The notes under the pieces were generated by a model. That model was not told where the DNA came from and did no database searches. It worked only from the letters and a program-made list of their open reading frames with translations. This document shows, in pieces, positions 1-8,421 of a stretch of 64,000 bases of DNA. Made by a program: the position numbers and the translations under genes. Position 1 is the first letter of the stretch. The number at the start of each line of letters is the position of its first letter. The stretch spans positions 864,001-928,000 of the forward strand of contig OY762926.1 in the NCBI GenBank assembly GCA_963666735.1, in the 5' to 3' direction. Source of the stretch: Gemmatimonadota bacterium. GTDB taxonomy: Bacteria > Gemmatimonadota > Gemmatimonadetes > Palauibacterales > Palauibacteraceae.

Positions 1-871
1 GGCGGACCTCCTCCTCGGAGCGCTCCCGCATGCGGGCCCGCGCTTCCGCCGCCGCGGCCTCCACGTCGTCCCGAAGGTTCTGGATCTGGATGGCCGTCAG
101 ATCACGGATCGCCTGTTCGTACGACCGCCTCTGGGGTCCCGTGGGAGCGAACCCGATGGGGATGGGGATCGTGACGTCGCCGAGGTGAATCCCCTGCTCC
201 GAGAATCCCCACCGCTTGCCATCGCGCTCGAAGGTCCAGTCGCGCGCGCGGCGCCGCACGTCGTCTTCAAGTTGGAGGCTGTCGAGCCAGTCGCGGAGAA
301 TCGCCCGAACCGCGCTGTCCGCCCGGGCGAACTGAACCAGCCGTTCGCCGATGAGCCGGGGGGACTGCGGGTCGAACCACAGGCGCGCGTCGCTGAAGCG
401 GAGTCGGAGCCGCGAGGCGTTGGTCCGGCCCCGCGGCCCTTCCGGCGCCGTCGGCTGACCGGCGACGATCAGGCCCGGCGCTCCGGGGAGGGGGGCTCGC
501 TCTTCCTCCGCCTCTTCTTCCTCTTCCTCCGCCTCTTCTTCCTCTTCCTCCGCCTCTTCTTCCTCCTCTTCGAGTGGCTCGGGTTCGACTTCCGGGATCT
601 CCTCCCCGGGCGGCTCCGGCCGGGGTTCCTCGGGAAGATCCTCGGGCAGGATCGGCGCGATCTCGACTACGACGAGGGCGTCGGGCGCGGGCACGGTCTC
701 GATGGGCGGGAGGGTGAAGGGAAGCGAATCCACACGGACGCCGCCCGCGACCATCAGAAGCAGGACGTGCAGGACGACGGAGGCGAGCAACCCAACCGCC
801 AGGGTCCGGCGCTGGGAACGATCGCGTTCGCGCTTCCGCTCGGCGAACCCTTCGGTTCGGGCGCGGGACAC
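1..871 (-). CDS. TonB/TolA-like single-pass membrane protein with Pro/Glu-rich linker and uncharacterised C-terminal domain (3' end runs off the window)
   Basis: Translated by hand (not in the ORF track because it runs off the edge). GTG at 871 gives MSRARTEG...TLAVGLLASVVLHVLLLMV (TM helix with S-x3-H), then PEDLPEEPRPEPP...EEEEEEAEEEEEEA linker, then a globular part (RLWFDP...DWTFERDGKRWGFSEQGIHLGDVTIPIP). No stop before position 1. Confidence 0.7.
   Translation of the reverse strand, partial: MSRARTEGFAERKRERDRSQRRTLAVGLLASVVLHVLLLMVAGGVRVDSLPFTLPPIETVPAPDALVVVEIAPILPEDLPEEPRPEPPGEEIPEVEPEPLEEEEEEAEEEEEEAEEEEEEAEEERAPLPGAPGLIVAGQPTAPEGPRGRTNASRLRLRFSDARLWFDPQSPRLIGERLVQFARADSAVRAILRDWLDSLQLEDDVRRRARDWTFERDGKRWGFSEQGIHLGDVTIPIPIGFAPTGPQRRSYEQAIRDLTAIQIQNLRDDVEAAAAEARARMRERSEEEVR
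500..562. repeat. 3 x 21-bp perfect tandem repeat (ctcttcctccgcctcttcttc) encoding a poly-Glu/Ala linker on the minus strand
   Basis: Units at 500-520, 521-541 and 542-562, read directly. Confidence 0.9.
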
Positions 872-955
872 CGGTCTACCCCCCAGCCGAGGTCCCCGGC
901 CTGGGGCGGCCGTTCGACCGGCCATCGGACCGGCCAGCCGCTCGGGGCGAGGCCC

Positions 956-2275
956 TCATGTGATCAGCTTCTTCTTCTTCGCGGCCGGGAAGAGGACATT
1001 GTTGAGGATGAGCCGATAGCCCGCGGAATGACGATGGAGATCCAGGTCCGTCGGGGCGTCGCCGATCAGGTGGCGGGGGTCTTCCGGATCGTGTCCCCCC
1101 AGGTACGTGAAGGTGCCCTCCCCGAGGCTCCCGTGGAGGTACTTCACGCGTCCGCGCGCCTCCTCCTCCGCAAGCACGGTGACGCCGGGCTGCAGGCGTT
1201 CCTTCCGAAACGTCGTCGTGAGACCGTAGAAGTCGGGCAGCACGCGTCGATGGTTCTGGGTCAGCATGGCCGGAACCGGATCGAACTTGGCGCTGAAATC
1301 GAACAGCGAGAAGCTGCCGAGATCGACCCTCCAGGGGGTGTTTACCTGGTGCCCGTCGATATCGCTGAAGGCGCTGAGCGTGGGGTCCATCACGAGCACG
1401 GCGTCGCGGAAGGCGAGCGCGTCCGCCCAACGGAGCCTGTCGCTCGCCGCGGCATCCGGCGGCGATCCATCGGCGAAGGAGGCCGCGATGTCGGTCCCCG
1501 CCGCGGCGAGGGCCAGCTCCAGCGTTTCCGTCGCCGTGCACATCGCGAACAGGAAACCGCCTCCCTCGACGTAGCTCCGGAGCCGGACCGCGACGGCCTT
1601 CTTCAGGGCGGGCACGTTCGGATACCCGAGTTCGCGCGCGATCGCCTCGTTGCGGGCGACTTCCTCCTGCAGCCAGGCCGATGAAGCGTACGACAGGTAG
1701 AACTTCGAATACTGCCCCGTGAAATCCTCGTGATGGAGGTGCAGCCAGTCGAAGTTCTCGAGTTCCCCGGACAGCACCTCCCGATCCCAGATCCGTTCGT
1801 AGGGGATCTCGGCGTACTCGAGGGCCATCGTCACGGCATCGTCCCACGGAGAACTGTTGGGCGGCGTGTAGACCGCGATCGTCGGCGCCTTTTCCAGGGG
1901 CACGGCCTCCATGTTCCGCGTCTCGATCTCGCGGCGGATCCTCGCCACATCGGCACCGTCGAGCGTCTCCACGGTCACGCCCATGAGCGCGGCTCGCCGA
2001 CGGTTGGACGATGCGTCCGACACGAGAAATGACCCGGAGCGGTAATTCAGGAGCCATTCGGCCGACTGGCTCTCCGAGAGGCTGCCGAACACGTACCCGT
2101 AGGCTTTGAGGTGGTTCTCCTGTTCGCGGTCCATGGGGACGAGAAGCTGTGCTCCGACCCCCGAGGCGCCCGCAAGCGAGGCCAGACCCGCCAGCAGGAG
2201 GCGGCGCGGGAGGGGGCATCGAACGCGGCTTCGAACCCGGCATCGAATGCCGCTTCGTTTCGTCTCGGCCTTCAT
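956..2275 (-). CDS. Secreted class-I glutamine-amidotransferase-like protein (family commonly auto-annotated 'asparagine synthetase B')
   Basis: Signal-like RRLLLAGLASLAGASGVGAQ. Family motifs LVPMD..NHLKAYG, WLLNYRSGSF, PWDDAVTMALEYAEIPY, DWLHLHHEDFTGQY, GGFLFAMC, GGHDPED, GYRLILNNVLFPAA. Confidence 0.7.
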   Translation of the reverse strand: MKAETKRSGIRCRVRSRVRCPLPRRLLLAGLASLAGASGVGAQLLVPMDREQENHLKAYGYVFGSLSESQSAEWLLNYRSGSFLVSDASSNRRRAALMGVTVETLDGADVARIRREIETRNMEAVPLEKAPTIAVYTPPNSSPWDDAVTMALEYAEIPYERIWDREVLSGELENFDWLHLHHEDFTGQYSKFYLSYASSAWLQEEVARNEAIARELGYPNVPALKKAVAVRLRSYVEGGGFLFAMCTATETLELALAAAGTDIAASFADGSPPDAAASDRLRWADALAFRDAVLVMDPTLSAFSDIDGHQVNTPWRVDLGSFSLFDFSAKFDPVPAMLTQNHRRVLPDFYGLTTTFRKERLQPGVTVLAEEEARGRVKYLHGSLGEGTFTYLGGHDPEDPRHLIGDAPTDLDLHRHSAGYRLILNNVLFPAAKKKKLIT

Positions 2276-4095
2276 CGGCCTCCTCCATCGAGTTCGGCGA
2301 GCATGCGGCGCGCGACCGGCGCAAGGGCGCTGCGGGGATACCCCACGATCAGCTGTTCCAGCCAGGACGCGGCGTCGGCGGGGGAGGACGCGCGTGCGAG
2401 ATCCAGGAGAGCGGGGGGGGCCTCGGGGCTTCCCGGGTGCCGCCGGACGATCTGGCGCCGCAGGGCGCCGGCGATGCGGGCCTGGCCGGCTGCGTCGGCC
2501 GCCTCGGCGAGGAAGCCCAGCACAACGGAACGGCCGCTCGATGCCGGGCGGGCGGCCAGGTCGCGGAGTGCCGGCCCGGGATCGAACGCCTCCGGAGCGG
2601 CGAGGAGGCCGAGCGCGGCGGCGCCCGCGATGCGGACCTCCGCCGTATCCGCCGCCTGTACGAGCGTCAGCAGCCGCAGGCGGCGCGTCCGTTCCGCCGC
2701 CCCGATTTCCGCCTCGCGGACGCTGCGGCTCGCCCGCTCCCGCGCGGAATCGCGCTGGCCCGCGTACAGCGCCAGCCGTGCCGCCGCGGCGTCGAGCCGC
2801 CCCGACGAAGCGACGCGAATCCTCTTCCGGGCGTCGGCCACCAGCGCCTCCGCCGTAGCGAGATCGCCGGCCCGCGCCTGGCCGAGCGCGAGATCCCCCC
2901 GCATCCCGGCCTCGGCAGCCGTGGAGTCCGGATACTGCCTCACATAGCGGTCAAGTACGGAGGCTGCTTCAACCAGCGAAGCGGGGTTGGCCGCGAGAAG
3001 CCCGAACAGCCGGCGCGACGCCAGTTGGTGCGGGCCGTCGCCGGAGGTGCTCTCCCGCATCAGTTCCTCGAGCGCCCGCCGCGCCGAAGCCGTATCCCCC
3101 GCGGCCAGCGCCTGCTCCCCGGACAGCGCGAGCCAGCGCAGGCGATCCACCGGCCGCGCGCTCAGGCCGGCGAGCCGCCGGGCGGACCAGGCGACCTCGC
3201 CGGGAAGCTCCGCCGCCTCCGCTTCGCGCACGTACTCGCGCAGGAACGCGGCACCCTCGGGGTCCTCCGGCATCGGCGCCGCCTCGGCCAGCGCCCGGGC
3301 CGCCTCCGCGCGCCCCAGCCGCAGCGCGACGATGGCCCCCGCCCGGGATGCTCCGTCCCGCCGGTCGGCCAGACGCCCGCGCAGCCGTTCGAAGGAAGCC
3401 GCATCGGCGGCGGACCCTTGGGCCTCGGCCGCCCGGAGGCCCGTTTCCACTTCGTCCGTCGCCGGCGGTGCGAGGGCGAGAAGCTCGACCCACGCCGCGG
3501 CCAGCCGATCTCCGTCACCCGCAGCGAGAAGGAGGTCGGCGAAGCGCGTGAGGAGTTCCCTGCCGGGGGTCGCGGCGTCGCCCAGCGTCCGGATCGCCCC
3601 CGCGGAATCCCCCACCGCAAGCTGGACATCGGCGCGGGCCAGCCGCGCCGCGGAGAGTTGGGGGGCTTCCTTCAGCCAGCGGTCGCTCACGGCGAGGGCC
3701 GAATCGAGCAGCCCCGCGCCGGTCAACCCTCGCACCCACCACAGCCGGGCGACCTCCTCGTCCGGGGCCGCGGCAACGGCGGCCTCCGCGTACGGCACGA
3801 GCGCGGCGGCCTCACCCGACTCCAGGGCCAGCTCGCCGAGCAGCGCGAGCGCGCCGGGCGACGCGGGCGCCCGCGCCAGGTGTTCGCGCAGGGCGGATGC
3901 GGCTTCCGCGGCCCGTCCGCCCGCGCGAAGGCGCTCCGCCCGCGCTACGGTGCGCTGCTCCGAGGTCGCGGATGCCTGGCCGGCCACGGCCGAGACCGTC
4001 GGCAACTGGGCGCCGCAAACACCCGCAAGGAGCACGAACGTCCGCGTCGCGCCGCAGATCCCGCCCGCGGGGAACCGGAGCCGGAGACGATCCAC
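2272..4095 (-). CDS. Tetratricopeptide-repeat (TPR) protein, probably exported
   Basis: Ala/Leu-rich helical repeats, YPDS/HPGS/YPRS TPR-cap motifs, N-terminal hydrophobic segment; overlaps the downstream gene by 4 bp. Confidence 0.7.
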   Translation of the reverse strand: MDRLRLRFPAGGICGATRTFVLLAGVCGAQLPTVSAVAGQASATSEQRTVARAERLRAGGRAAEAASALREHLARAPASPGALALLGELALESGEAAALVPYAEAAVAAAPDEEVARLWWVRGLTGAGLLDSALAVSDRWLKEAPQLSAARLARADVQLAVGDSAGAIRTLGDAATPGRELLTRFADLLLAAGDGDRLAAAWVELLALAPPATDEVETGLRAAEAQGSAADAASFERLRGRLADRRDGASRAGAIVALRLGRAEAARALAEAAPMPEDPEGAAFLREYVREAEAAELPGEVAWSARRLAGLSARPVDRLRWLALSGEQALAAGDTASARRALEELMRESTSGDGPHQLASRRLFGLLAANPASLVEAASVLDRYVRQYPDSTAAEAGMRGDLALGQARAGDLATAEALVADARKRIRVASSGRLDAAAARLALYAGQRDSARERASRSVREAEIGAAERTRRLRLLTLVQAADTAEVRIAGAAALGLLAAPEAFDPGPALRDLAARPASSGRSVVLGFLAEAADAAGQARIAGALRRQIVRRHPGSPEAPPALLDLARASSPADAASWLEQLIVGYPRSALAPVARRMLAELDGGGR

Positions 4096-4096
4096 G

Positions 4097-7000
4097 TCAG
4101 GGCTCCCGCCGGGCCGCGGCGCCTGACGGAGGCACGCGGTTCAGGCGGTCGAAGTACTCGAAGATCAGCGATCGGTAGAAGAGCGGCAGCTCCCGGAGCA
4201 GGGCTTCCGCGGGCGCCGGGTAGCGGCGTCCCCGCAGCAGCTCCGGGTCGATCGGCGGCGGGGTCCCCGGCGGAGCCGTGGCTTCGCGCGACTCCCGCTC
4301 GTTGGGGTCGAGATCCTCATCCTCGAGCGAGCGCCCCGCGTCGAGCATGCGCCGGAAGAGTTGGCGCTGTCGTTCAAGCGTCTCCTGCGTGGGCCCCTCC
4401 AACTCGAGCTGCCGTGCGAGTTCGGCCGCCTCCTCCGCCAGTTCCTCGGGACGTCCCAGCAGATCGCCCTCCGGATCTTCCAGCTCTCCGAGTTCGTCGG
4501 CGACCTCCTCCTGCCGCCGCACGATCTCCTCGCGCCGCCGCTCCTCTCCCGACGGCCGCGGGCCGGGCATGAGGAGCGAACTCGTCTCCTGCGTCACGGC
4601 CTGCTGCTGCTGAGCGAGCTGGTTCATCTGATCCGCCGCGTCCTGGCCGGCGGATTCCTGCCCGGCCGCCCGCGCCGCCTCCTCGCTCGCCAGCAGATGT
4701 CGGGCCAGCGAGTTCAGCGACTCCTGGATGCCCTCGACCTCCGCCCGAGACGGGAGACGCCGCGCGCCATCTCCCGCGAGCCGGTCCAGCAACTGATCCA
4801 TGCGTTCCGCCGCCTCGCCCGCCGCCGCCCCGGTACGCTGGTCGAGCATGGCGGCCTCGTTCCCGGCCTCGGAGAGTCGTTCGACCAGGTTCTCCAAGCC
4901 CTGACGCACGGCCCCCTGCTGCGCGCGCCAGGATGCCGGATCCGCCGTATTCTCACCCCGCGTCGCCTCCGACAGACGGCCCTCCTCCTCCGCCAGCGCG
5001 AGCGCTTCGCTGCGCGCGCGAGCCAGCGACTCGACGGCGGCCTCCCCCTGTTCCCCGCTCATCTCCCGCTGCGCCGAGCCGAGGGCGCCCGCCGCCTGTT
5101 CGAGCGCCTCCGCGGCTTCCTCCGCCGCCTGCCGCTCCGATTCGCCGACCTCGCCCGGCTCTCCGGATGGGGACGGCTCGGTTCCACTATGCGCGTCGGC
5201 CATCTTCCCGAGGGCCTCCTGCGTGCGCTCACCGGCGGCCCGGGCCGAATCCGCAGCCATCTCCCGGTCCGCCGCCTCGAGTTCCGCCTCCAGCTCGGCC
5301 AGGCGCTCCGCCAGCGCCTCGGCCTGTTCGACGAGAGACTCCTGGCCCTCCTGAAACGTCTCGGCATCCGTCTCGCCGGCGACTTCCCTCTGCTCCTGCG
5401 CCAGTTCATCCGCGTTGGCCTGCGCCGACTTCATCGCTTGTTCGAGCGCAGCCTGCTCGAGCATGCCGAGCGTCTGGTCCACCTGCTCGCGCAGATTCTC
5501 GTAATCGTTGGAGAGCTGTTCGAGCGCTTCGCGCACCGCTTCCGGATCCAGCTCGCGCAGTGCTTCCGCGAGCGCCTCGATCTGCTCCTCGAGTCCGCTC
5601 GTGGCCAGTTCCTCGTAGCGTTCGGCCAGACGCTGCAACTGCTCCCGCAGCGCGGGGTCGGAGAGCGGCGAGGCTTCGAGTTCCTCCTGAAGAGCCTGGA
5701 GCTGTTCCTCCACCCCATCGAACTCCGCCTCGGACCGCTGCGCCTCATCGAGTACGCTCCGCGCCTCTTCCGTGGCCTCGAACCGGACTTCCTCGCTGTC
5801 GTCCCCCTCGGCATCCGTCTGCCGCGCAGCGTCGGCCGCCGCCTCGGCCAACGCCTCCAGGCTCTCCTCCAGGGCCTGCGCGGCGTCGGACAAGGCCTCG
5901 GTTTGCTCCGCGCGCTGATCCCGAATCTCCGTGAAGGTCGGAACGCGAAGCAGGAAGACGTCGGAAAGCGCGGGCCCCCTGGCCGGGTGTCCGTCGAAGG
6001 CCTCGAAGCGGTAGAACAGCGTATCCCCGGGCAGGAAGGACTCCGCGCTGCGGTCGAGCAGGTGCCGGAAGACCGCGCGCGCCGCCCCGGCCGGTTCCGG
6101 GGAAAGCACCTCCCGTCGCTCCGCGCTTTCGCCGCCCAACCCTGAGCGCCAGCTGCGAACGAAGGCTCGGCGGAGCCCGATGTCGTCCTCCATGTCCACG
6201 ATGACCGGCATCACGCGCTCGTAGCCCAGGGTCGTGTCCGGGGCCGGATAGAGCAGGTGGATGCGCGGCTGAAGGTCGGGGACCACGAGCACCCGGATCG
6301 GGTCGGGGACGATGGGCGCGCCGAGCGACGATTCGGCCCGCAATTCCCACGCCCAGGCGCCGGTCCGCTCCGGAACCCACGAAACGGCGAACTGCGAACC
6401 CGCGATCTCCAGCGGGATTCGAGCTGGCGCCTCGCCGCTCTCACCGTCGCCGGACTCCCGTACGAGGGCCCCGCCATCGAGCGGGAGGTTCGTCTCCCCG
6501 CTCAACCGCAACCTCGTTCCCTGCGGCGCCACGAGCGGCGGAATCCGACCCCGGTAACGCTCCGAGGCGCGCCCGAGATAAGCCGGGAACTCGACGGTGA
6601 GCTGGAGATCCTGGACCAGAAGCGGTTCGAGGGGGCGGACAAGAAGGGTGTCGCTCGATAACCCCTCCCGGTCTTCGGCCCACACCGCCGTGAGAGAGAT
6701 GATCGGGGCGGTGCGGCCCTGCGCCGAACCGGCCGCCGATACCTCGAGGAGGGTCCGTTCGGGCGCCCGGCCCGCCGCGCGCCACACCAGGTCGACCCGG
6801 TCGCGTCCCGTAGCCGAGACGGACACCACAGCCGCTTCTCCGCGCGGTACACCGGGCGCGCCGGTGAGGCCGAGGGGCGGAAGCGGCGCGGGAAAGGCCG
6901 CACGCCACGGCGCGCCCAATGCTGCGGCGGCGGAGAACGTGGGCTGCGGGCGCAGCAGCGCGGCCACCGAGATCGCGAGCAGCATGAGCGCCACGGCGAG

Positions 7001-7462
7001 ACCCGAACGGCGAACCCGCCGCTTCCACGCCGGGCCGCTGACCGGCAGGAGCCCGCGCGGCGCGGCGTTCCCCAGCGCCTCGGATACACGCGAGCGGTGG
7101 AGCGCGGCCAATCCGGCGCCCCCAACCGCCTCCGCCCCTTCCAGCTCGATCGCGGAGCGGACATCGCCGGCCCCCAGTCCCGCCGCAACGTCCGCCTCCT
7201 CCGCCACCGCCTGCGGGCGCAGCGCGCGCCAGACGCGGCGGACGATCCACGTCAGCCCGGCGAGGCCGGCCCACAGCACGAGGGCGAGCGCGAGCGGCAC
7301 GAGCGATCCGCGGCCTTCCCGAGCGGAAACCGGGAGCAGGGATAGGACGAGAACCAGCGCACCGCCCAGCGTAACGGCTGAAGCCGCCGCCGTCCCCGCA
7401 GCGCGCGCTCGAGCCGCCGTGCACGCGGCGGCCAGCCGTTCGAAGCCGAATCCGTCACTCAT
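4097..7462 (-). CDS. DUF4175-like large membrane-anchored protein (TM helices, beta-rich middle, long acidic coiled coil)
   Basis: ATG at 7462 overlaps the rsmI stop. Hydrophobic N-terminal helices, P-A-Y-L-G and D-D-I-G-L motifs, Glu/Gln/Ala coiled coil, C-terminal FYRSLIFEYFDRL. Confidence 0.7.
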   Translation of the reverse strand: MSDGFGFERLAAACTAARARAAGTAAASAVTLGGALVLVLSLLPVSAREGRGSLVPLALALVLWAGLAGLTWIVRRVWRALRPQAVAEEADVAAGLGAGDVRSAIELEGAEAVGGAGLAALHRSRVSEALGNAAPRGLLPVSGPAWKRRVRRSGLAVALMLLAISVAALLRPQPTFSAAAALGAPWRAAFPAPLPPLGLTGAPGVPRGEAAVVSVSATGRDRVDLVWRAAGRAPERTLLEVSAAGSAQGRTAPIISLTAVWAEDREGLSSDTLLVRPLEPLLVQDLQLTVEFPAYLGRASERYRGRIPPLVAPQGTRLRLSGETNLPLDGGALVRESGDGESGEAPARIPLEIAGSQFAVSWVPERTGAWAWELRAESSLGAPIVPDPIRVLVVPDLQPRIHLLYPAPDTTLGYERVMPVIVDMEDDIGLRRAFVRSWRSGLGGESAERREVLSPEPAGAARAVFRHLLDRSAESFLPGDTLFYRFEAFDGHPARGPALSDVFLLRVPTFTEIRDQRAEQTEALSDAAQALEESLEALAEAAADAARQTDAEGDDSEEVRFEATEEARSVLDEAQRSEAEFDGVEEQLQALQEELEASPLSDPALREQLQRLAERYEELATSGLEEQIEALAEALRELDPEAVREALEQLSNDYENLREQVDQTLGMLEQAALEQAMKSAQANADELAQEQREVAGETDAETFQEGQESLVEQAEALAERLAELEAELEAADREMAADSARAAGERTQEALGKMADAHSGTEPSPSGEPGEVGESERQAAEEAAEALEQAAGALGSAQREMSGEQGEAAVESLARARSEALALAEEEGRLSEATRGENTADPASWRAQQGAVRQGLENLVERLSEAGNEAAMLDQRTGAAAGEAAERMDQLLDRLAGDGARRLPSRAEVEGIQESLNSLARHLLASEEAARAAGQESAGQDAADQMNQLAQQQQAVTQETSSLLMPGPRPSGEERRREEIVRRQEEVADELGELEDPEGDLLGRPEELAEEAAELARQLELEGPTQETLERQRQLFRRMLDAGRSLEDEDLDPNERESREATAPPGTPPPIDPELLRGRRYPAPAEALLRELPLFYRSLIFEYFDRLNRVPPSGAAARREP

Positions 7463-8316
7463 TCCGAGGGCGCCTCTTGAACCTGCAAGCTCACGCGATA
7501 GGCCTCGTTCCGGCTCAGACCGAACTCCGCAGCCAGGCGGCCGGCAATCTCGCGCCGCCGCAGGCCATCGCGCGACCAATGTCGCGCCTCCTCCATCAGG
7601 ACCGCCAGATCGGGCACTTCGTTGCCTGCCGTGTTGCCTGCCGCGCCCTCCCCGAAGACGATCGTCACCTCGCCCCTGACCTCGCGGGTCGCGAACCCGG
7701 ACGCCAGCTCGCGCACGGATCCGGCCGTGGTTTCCTCGTGCATTTTCGTCAGCTCCCTGCAGACGACGGCAGCCCGCTCCCCCAGGCCCGCTTCGGTCAG
7801 CTCACCGAGGAGGGCGACCAGCCGTCCCGGAGCCTCGAACGCAACCGCGGTGTCCACGCAGGCGCGGAGATCGTCGATCCAGGCAGAGCGTTCGCCACGG
7901 CGCCGGGGGACGAATCCGAGAAAAAGAAACCGGTCCGCCGGAAAGCCGGACACGGAGAGCGCCGCGAGCACGGCGGAAGGACCGGGAACCGCCAGCACCT
8001 CGTGCCCCGCTTCGCGGGCGGCGGCCACGGCCCGGCAGCCGGGGTCGGATACGGTCGGCGTGCCCGCGTCGGAAACCAGGGCCGCGGTGCGGCCCGCGGC
8101 GAGGGCGGCGATCAACTCCTCCACCCGCGCCCGCTCGTTGTGCATGTGCAGCGATCGCAACGGGACGTTCGCCTCCACCCGCGCGAGCAGCTTGCCCGTG
8201 CGCCGCGTGTCTTCCGCGTAGCACACGTCGACCGAACGCAGAATCCGGACCGCACGCCGCGGCATGTCGTCCAGATTGCCGATCGGCGTGCCGACCACGT
8301 AGAGCGTTCCCGTCAC
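7459..8316 (-). CDS. rsmI: 16S rRNA (cytidine1402-2'-O)-methyltransferase
   Basis: GTLYVVGTPIGNLDD, AEDTRRT, LVSDAGTP, CRELTKMHEE. Alternative start at 8373. Confidence 0.95.
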   Translation of the reverse strand: MTGTLYVVGTPIGNLDDMPRRAVRILRSVDVCYAEDTRRTGKLLARVEANVPLRSLHMHNERARVEELIAALAAGRTAALVSDAGTPTVSDPGCRAVAAAREAGHEVLAVPGPSAVLAALSVSGFPADRFLFLGFVPRRRGERSAWIDDLRACVDTAVAFEAPGRLVALLGELTEAGLGERAAVVCRELTKMHEETTAGSVRELASGFATREVRGEVTIVFGEGAAGNTAGNEVPDLAVLMEEARHWSRDGLRRREIAGRLAAEFGLSRNEAYRVSLQVQEAPSE

Positions 8317-8421
8317 GACACGCGTCCTCGTCTCCCGTTCGCCGCCCGATGCGCCCGCGCCCCCCGAAGCCACCTGGGCCGGGGGGCGCGGAGTCGGCGT
8401 GGCCCGTGGCGGCGGCGCCCC

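Follow-up and report, generated by a model that had tools for sequence, protein, structure and literature searches.

A 64,000-nucleotide stretch of a Gemmatimonadota bacterium genome (assembly GCA_963666735.1, contig OY762926.1, positions 864,001 to 928,000; hereafter the window) carries three minus-strand genes, P1, P2 and P3, that belong to a dispersed inherited unit, in which a DUF4159-P1-P2-P3 block is joined by moxR at one separate site and DUF58-batA/vWA at another. The seven genes probably form one ATP-driven MoxR-type envelope machine with P3 as its periplasmic Cys/His enzyme, a reading backed by joint inheritance, gene order, protein folds, conserved Cys and His residues and export-type N-termini. 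The first-pass annotation had proposed a four-gene envelope system that also included the next gene, P4. The linkage of P1, P2 and P3 across Gemmatimonadota loci stood, with gene order, hydropathy and orthologue N-termini agreeing on an exported or membrane-anchored module, but P4 was decoupled from it. The earlier list did not include the DUF4159 gene, which in this genome has moved ~15 kb, or the moxR and DUF58-batA genes, which lie at remote sites.

P3 was detected in 107 of 121 Gemmatimonadota genomes, 120 of which had a completeness of 90% or more and low contamination; as these are metagenome-assembled genomes (MAGs), absence here means not found. The remaining parts were sought in all 14 P3-negative genomes and in 16 positives chosen from the other 106 to span families. 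P1, P2, DUF4159 and batA were present in 16/16 positives and DUF58 and moxR in 15/16 each, and none of the seven orthologues (P1, P2, P3, DUF4159, moxR, DUF58, batA) was found in 12 negatives, with the control gene surA present in 30/30 genomes. One negative (G100) was left out of the loss count as its contig ends inside P1, and another (G052) was set aside as a probable gap. The joint loss in 12 genomes confirmed a co-occurrence with MoxR, DUF58 and vWA genes that the earlier annotation had suggested checking.

The losses were seen at three separate sites. At the first, the block was gone with the trxA/rsmI and dinG/FAH flanks kept in 9/9 fetched negatives; rsmI abutted dinG or FAH in seven of these, trxA abutted dinG in one and a 1.6-kb spacer remained in one. 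At the second, DUF58-batA was gone ahead of mfd-surA in 12/12 negatives and present in 10/10 comparison loci. At the third, moxR was gone beside atpB in 10/10 negatives and present in all 14 members of the comparison set. In a quick tree built from Mfd of 25 genomes, six changes were needed, at least five of them forced by well-supported branches; the system was thus lost in at least five independent lineages. Lineages without the system provide a natural comparison set.

Gene order was counted over 80 genome loci found with P3, nearly all titled Gemmatimonadota, using profiles (A2, A3, A5, A6) built partly from loci that were then counted, so that within-locus counts are biased upward. P2 lay upstream of P3 in 66/66 scorable loci and P1 in 59/60. 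The DUF4159 gene was directly upstream of P1 in 56/59 loci, in most relatives standing between rsmI and P1; its orthologue in the source genome lies at C1:848,398-849,354. Among named loci the closest is L078 (Candidatus Palauibacter), which has the same gene order and a P3 that is 93% identical. A dinG gene directly followed P3 in 69/78 loci and is absent from that place in the window. In most Gemmatimonadota loci, as at L033:11326-13830, the DinG-family helicase carries a RadC-like JAB domain fused at its N-terminus. A further 80 metagenome loci around P3, with GC content of 0.27-0.73 and many of them short, are unclassified and probably come from other phyla. The P2 profile matched in 31 of these and the P1 profile in nine; DUF4159 preceded P1 in 5/5 loci with sequence there, and clpX stood between P2 and P3 in several. 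A search confined to these loci gave one distant DUF58 but neither moxR nor batA.

In the source genome the seven genes occupy four sites rather than one operon behind moxR. The moxR and DUF58 paralogues closest to those of a one-piece operon described below stand apart from each other: moxR adjoins the atp operon at C1:1,899,444, whereas DUF58, together with batA, is at C1:3,610,041-3,613,020 ahead of mfd-surA. The system's MoxR matched AAA_3 over the cut-off and DUF58 and BatA were likewise over theirs, with VWA_2 weak in BatA. Two genomes, G012 and G015, hold moxR-DUF58-batA-mfd-surA as an unbroken run (the sole cases among the loci fetched), and in two metagenome loci surA leads into DUF4159-P1-P2-P3, accompanied by mfd in L083 and by a gene of the mfd cluster in L161. 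This evidence suggests one ancestral cluster for the scattered genes.

P3 gave no Pfam or NCBIfam match, and no relative with a solved structure was found by sequence or profile. Its AlphaFold2 model (predicted local distance difference test, pLDDT, 94.5) has a flavodoxin-like alpha/beta core according to Foldseek and VIA-align (Z up to 13.1). Mature residues ~87-393 matched class I glutamine-amidotransferase-like folds with best Z of 13.0-13.1 and a root-mean-square deviation (rmsd) of ~3.2 Å over ~185 residues, with GATase1-like, ThuA, acylase and GH42 domains among the matches at Z 11-13. Cys246 lies at the end of strand E199-203 (mature-numbered model), in an elbow position assigned from secondary structure. 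It was kept in 70 of the 77 aligned representatives covering the position, drawn from 150 distant representatives. His395 was kept in 44 of 48 and was invariant in 18 diverse sequences; His182 and Asp184 were each kept in 109/115 representatives and both were invariant in alignment A4. These results agree with the earlier description of P3 as GATase-like with a Cys elbow and a His. P3 is single-copy in the source genome, and relatives were found neither in plasmids nor, with one Spirosoma-type query, in viral contigs. On its fold and conserved residues, P3 is predicted to be a periplasmic Cys/His amide hydrolase or acyl-transferase.

The signal h-region of this P3 copy is below the 19-residue threshold and it carries no twin-arginine signal; its export is read from orthologues, 43 of 44 parsed metagenome N-termini having a hydrophobic signal core. 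A twin-arginine pattern was matched in 41/68 Gemmatimonadota copies (including at least one false match and with one miss) and in 0/44 parsed metagenome copies. Within loci L006-L072, signals were of the twin-arginine type in most Gemmatimonadales-titled loci, whereas most of the remaining loci had the ordinary Sec type; the export route has thus changed lineage-wide, at ~60-65% sequence identity. Seven of 17 fetched homologues (P0123, P0126, P0128, P0131, P0135, P0136 and P0142) bear a C-terminal tail that by eye resembles a type IX secretion system (T9SS) sorting domain, suggesting stand-alone secreted copies.

In Gemmatimonadota, WOR-3 and Spirosoma, source databases give the P3 family the name 'asparagine synthetase B'; 8000/8000 scored candidates were homologues. 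Asparagine synthetase B is a cytoplasmic enzyme combining a class II (N-terminal nucleophile, Ntn) glutaminase domain with an ATP-pyrophosphatase synthetase domain. The name was rejected for P3 because of its missing Pfam and NCBIfam matches, its class I fold and the signal peptides of the family, which corrects a misannotation, the entries being exported proteins of a different fold.

P1 has transmembrane helices predicted at residues 25-43, 55-74 and 152-171, followed by three Ig/FN3-like beta-sandwiches (~198-506) and long helical bundles (AlphaFold2 pLDDT 83.7), and its Foldseek matches were tandem Ig/FN3 domains. This copy has no Pfam match, DUF4175 (PF13779) included. The earlier description of P1 as DUF4175-like is nevertheless kept because its orthologues match that family, in 5/14 Gemmatimonadota sequences (two over the cut-off) and 5/5 metagenome sequences (four over the cut-off). 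For P2, said previously to be a TPR scaffold positioning P3, TPR_19 was matched in 28/45 orthologues. ESMFold2 models of P2 (residues 40-607) with mature P3 gave a median interaction prediction score from aligned errors (ipSAE) of 0.79 (runs of 0.00, 0.79 and 0.82); the best of three controls was 0.00. For the P2-P3 pair, partner pLDDT was at least 84 and run agreement at least 0%. The ipSAE mark was met by 116/157 solved pairs and by 2/215 mismatched pairs. P2 is thus predicted to bind P3 as a TPR scaffold, contacting its N-terminal domain and side sheet, with Cys246 and His395 outside the predicted interface.

Because P1-P3 and the four distant genes were lost together, they likely constitute one machine. 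A MoxR ring with the DUF58 (VWA) protein as adaptor would engage cytoplasmic loops of BatA and P1, and ATP hydrolysis by the cytoplasmic MoxR would drive remodelling at these loops. The Ig stalk and helical bundles of P1 may transmit this action into the periplasm, where P1 and P2 would position P3 and DUF4159, with P2 seated on the side face of P3 away from Cys246/His395 and DUF4159 acting as a putative Cys-less partner with the fold of P3. P3 would then attack an amide via Cys246/His395, the target possibly being an amide bond of an envelope protein or wall component. A more specific version is offered tentatively, as a possibility we would not bet on: in Gemmatimonadota and related phyla, MoxR would act via BatA and the DUF4175 stalk on a periplasmic cysteine transamidase, activating or feeding it, and this enzyme would covalently modify or cross-link components of the envelope. 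If true, no catalytic output of MoxR-DUF58-BatA systems would have been identified before P3.

Several findings weigh against an enzyme-bearing seven-gene machine. G052 keeps moxR, DUF58 and batA without the DUF4159-P1-P2-P3 block, and the P3-positive G002 is without a full moxR or DUF58 orthologue. Both exceptions are probably assembly gaps, G052 being read in this way because P4 is missing there too. For moxR the margin in score is small (392 vs 383 bits), and its orthology is drawn from synteny. P3 frequently stands apart from P1 and P2 in loci outside Gemmatimonadota, with dnaB upstream in 13/80 metagenome loci. One of the three P2-P3 runs scored 0.00, and conservation at the predicted P2 interface was 0.37 vs 0.46 elsewhere in P2, with no excess. 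The GH42 domains among the top fold matches of P3 are not known to be catalytic. H-D-P-E is common at His395 with both D and E varying, and since the acid is not invariant a full catalytic triad in P3 is putative.

In the main alternative, MoxR and DUF58 would be maturation chaperones of the same seven-gene system that fold or metal-load P3 before or during export, with P3 a dimethylformamidase-like, metal-assisted amidase working through His182-x-Asp184; we consider this unlikely. The twin-arginine-type signals in Gemmatimonadota loci would imply folding before export, and the title of one reference ties MoxR1 to twin-arginine translocation (Tat) export of RipA, but such a signal is absent from this copy and from 44/44 parsed metagenome copies, and chaperoning leaves two large periplasmic membrane proteins unexplained. 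As for a metal site, P3 matched the fold of an acylase (8i5a, Z 12.3) and of dimethylformamidase (6lvb, Z 9.4), an enzyme that employs His519 and Glu521 (PMC7686228). By eye, the dimethylformamidase-family members of the source genome read VGHDEYW on a seemingly equivalent strand. Metal amidases of this class hold iron with an H-x-E motif and two Tyr ligands. Against this, hhalign showed no profile similarity between P3 and the dimethylformamidase family, and Cys246/His395 are conserved too. The source genome has two tandem dimethylformamidase large-subunit family genes at C1:3,088,420-3,092,030 (L217, L218), which were not found in four other Gemmatimonadota genomes.

Another alternative, which we regard as improbable, holds that the complex is structural or regulatory and that P3 turns nothing over, its GATase-like fold serving for binding or oligomerisation. 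GH42 domains are indeed among the best Z scores, as are GATase1-like proteins whose activity is unknown, and DUF4159, in a weak hhalign match to P3 of only 17 columns (probability 10%), has Asp at the position of the P3 Cys. Conservation of the Cys, the His and the H-x-D at ~90-95%, where overall identity is ~40-50%, speaks against such a module, as do the T9SS-like tails seen by eye in some homologues, which would suit an enzyme able to work alone.

P4 had been cast as the energy transducer of the system, and it would couple the proton-motive force to P1-P3 via ExbBD/TolQR. It resembles TonB and TolA in having one helix, at the N-terminus, that bears S-x3-H and leads into a Pro/Glu-rich linker; the motif was present in 25/29 orthologues (23 by pattern and two read individually). 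The genome holds three MotA/ExbB-family matches, and P4 stands in the same long co-directional gene string as P1-P3, after an 84-bp gap (872-955) without a terminator-like site. Unlike TonB and TolA, P4 has none of the genome's six TonB_C matches and no exbBD or tolQR gene beside it. Its weak TolA/TonB matches covered residues 19-125 only, far below the cut-off, and its C-terminal domain, without a named Atlas neighbour, resembled only Gemmatimonadota hypothetical clusters. P4 adjoined P3 in just one of the 53 loci holding it, with dinG between them in 50, and it was kept in 10/12 genomes that lack P1-P3. It was not found in 3/3 tested P3-positive genomes of the other class, and its profile had no match in the 80 metagenome loci. 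Because of this double dissociation, P4 is largely excluded as energy transducer, the coupling is very improbable, and P4 is a mere neighbour outside the P1-P3 system. It is single-copy and present in 24/25 tested genomes of its class and 0/5 of the other class. In its linker (window 498-570, minus strand) near-tandem repeats encode a Glu-rich run of EEEEEEA units, longer than in the 90%-identical orthologue at L078. Finally, hitchhiking in a conserved housekeeping gene string (trxA, rsmI, dinG, dapL, valS, mfd, surA, atp operon) has next to no likelihood, being refuted by co-loss at three sites in at least five lineages with neighbours retained, barring a systematic assembly artefact shared by MAGs.

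The four minus-strand open reading frames (ORFs) P1-P4 were confirmed in the window (Table 1), and their orthologues hold the same order across dozens of genomes. The co-orientation, junctions and motifs listed in the first-pass annotation were all recovered in the ORF and sequence check: ATGA overlaps at 7459-7462 (rsmI/P1) and 2272-2275 (P2/P3), a 1-bp gap at 4096 (P1/P2), FAMC (Cys246) and GGHDPED (His395) in P3, and ASVVLH at P4 residues 30-35. By hydropathy, P1 has three helices and P4 has one, while P2 shows a single stretch at its N-terminus. P4 is 303 amino acids in full and ends ~40 bases beyond the left edge of the window, with valS as the next gene. Window 600-1200 showed neither a promoter-like nor a terminator-like site.

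Table 1. Features of the P1-P4 region, in window coordinates.
Feature	Position	Strand	Description
P1	4097..7462	-	1121 aa; DUF4175-like inner-membrane protein
P2	2272..4095	-	607 aa; predicted TPR scaffold with signal-like N-terminus
P3	956..2275	-	439 aa; class I glutamine-amidotransferase-fold protein, exported as read from orthologues; misnamed 'asparagine synthetase B'
P4	1..871	-	Single-pass protein with TonB/TolA-type S-x3-H helix and Gemmatimonadota-specific C-terminal domain; neighbour, outside the system
P3 Cys246 codon	1538..1540	-	Strand-to-helix elbow; predicted nucleophile
P3 His395 codon in GGHDP	1091..1093	-	Predicted catalytic His
P3 His182-Glu-Asp184 of HHEDFTGQ	1724..1732	-	Second conserved polar site, possibly metal-binding
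rsmI	7459..8373	-	Upstream flank of P1; TIGR00096 over cut-off

P3 shares its Cys elbow and late His with class I glutamine amidotransferase-like hydrolases, and it resembles PuuD/SpuA, MetA, ThuA-like, GATase1_like, dimethylformamidase and beta-Phe acylase proteins at Z 9-13 and rmsd 3-4.5 Å over ~180-220 residues. It differs from the class I hydrolases in its 10-16% identity to them, its export, an additional domain of ~85 residues at its N-terminus, an oxyanion strand that carries HHEDFTGQ and the lack of a Pfam model. A literature search covering few subscription papers and no supplements found no paper on the seven-gene set or on P3. Among the DUF4175 and DUF4159 papers found, none was about this system by title and abstract start, and the available passages of the Lipocone preprint were unrelated to it.

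The closest relative within the source genome is a paralogous one-piece operon (L165, C1:1,499,526-1,514,231), which like the system holds DUF4175, BatA-vWA, DUF58, MoxR, DUF4159, TPR and GATase1_like parts. Unlike the system, it has its GATase1_like domain in a membrane vWA protein, with no P3 match there. The operon also encodes a 374-amino-acid protein without a Pfam match and a TPR protein with a weak peptidase MA match. Three more moxR-DUF58 loci occur at C1 ~532,000, ~1,042,000 and ~3,344,000, one of them with Bat-like vWA/TPR genes, and the genome has five moxR genes in total. The Bat-like locus separate from the system was read from ORF starts near C1:3.34 Mb.

Beyond this genome, the Rhizobium cmd genes form one compact operon, whereas the present genes occupy three or four sites. 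The cmd operon reportedly includes DUF58 and a BatA/DUF4159 membrane protein. The system holds a DUF4175-like giant, a 600-amino-acid TPR protein and the P3 family, parts that may set it apart from the cmd operon. The likeness to Rhizobium leguminosarum RL3499-RL3502 (cmdA-cmdD) lies in an MRP-subfamily MoxR, needed there, according to the accessible parts of the sources, for membrane integrity and cell shape (PMC3893208, PMC5700661). More broadly, the available portions of the papers on MoxR-DUF58-VWA-TPR operons (Bat, cmdA-D) report envelope and stress phenotypes with an unclear function (PMC3893208, PMC5700661, PMC11834572). Bat operons (Bacteroides, Riemerella, Leptospira, Borrelia; the Francisella moxR locus) share MoxR, DUF58, BatA/VWA and TPR genes with the system but, as described in the passages available, are without DUF4159, DUF4175 or P3; the co-lost set, for its part, showed no BatD/SH3 component. 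The system is an uncatalogued form of the MoxR-DUF58-BatA (Bat/cmd) envelope systems. Such operons are widespread, and here the parts list is set by repeated co-loss and includes one conserved protein whose active site is recognisable, so that the question of function can be addressed with single point mutants.

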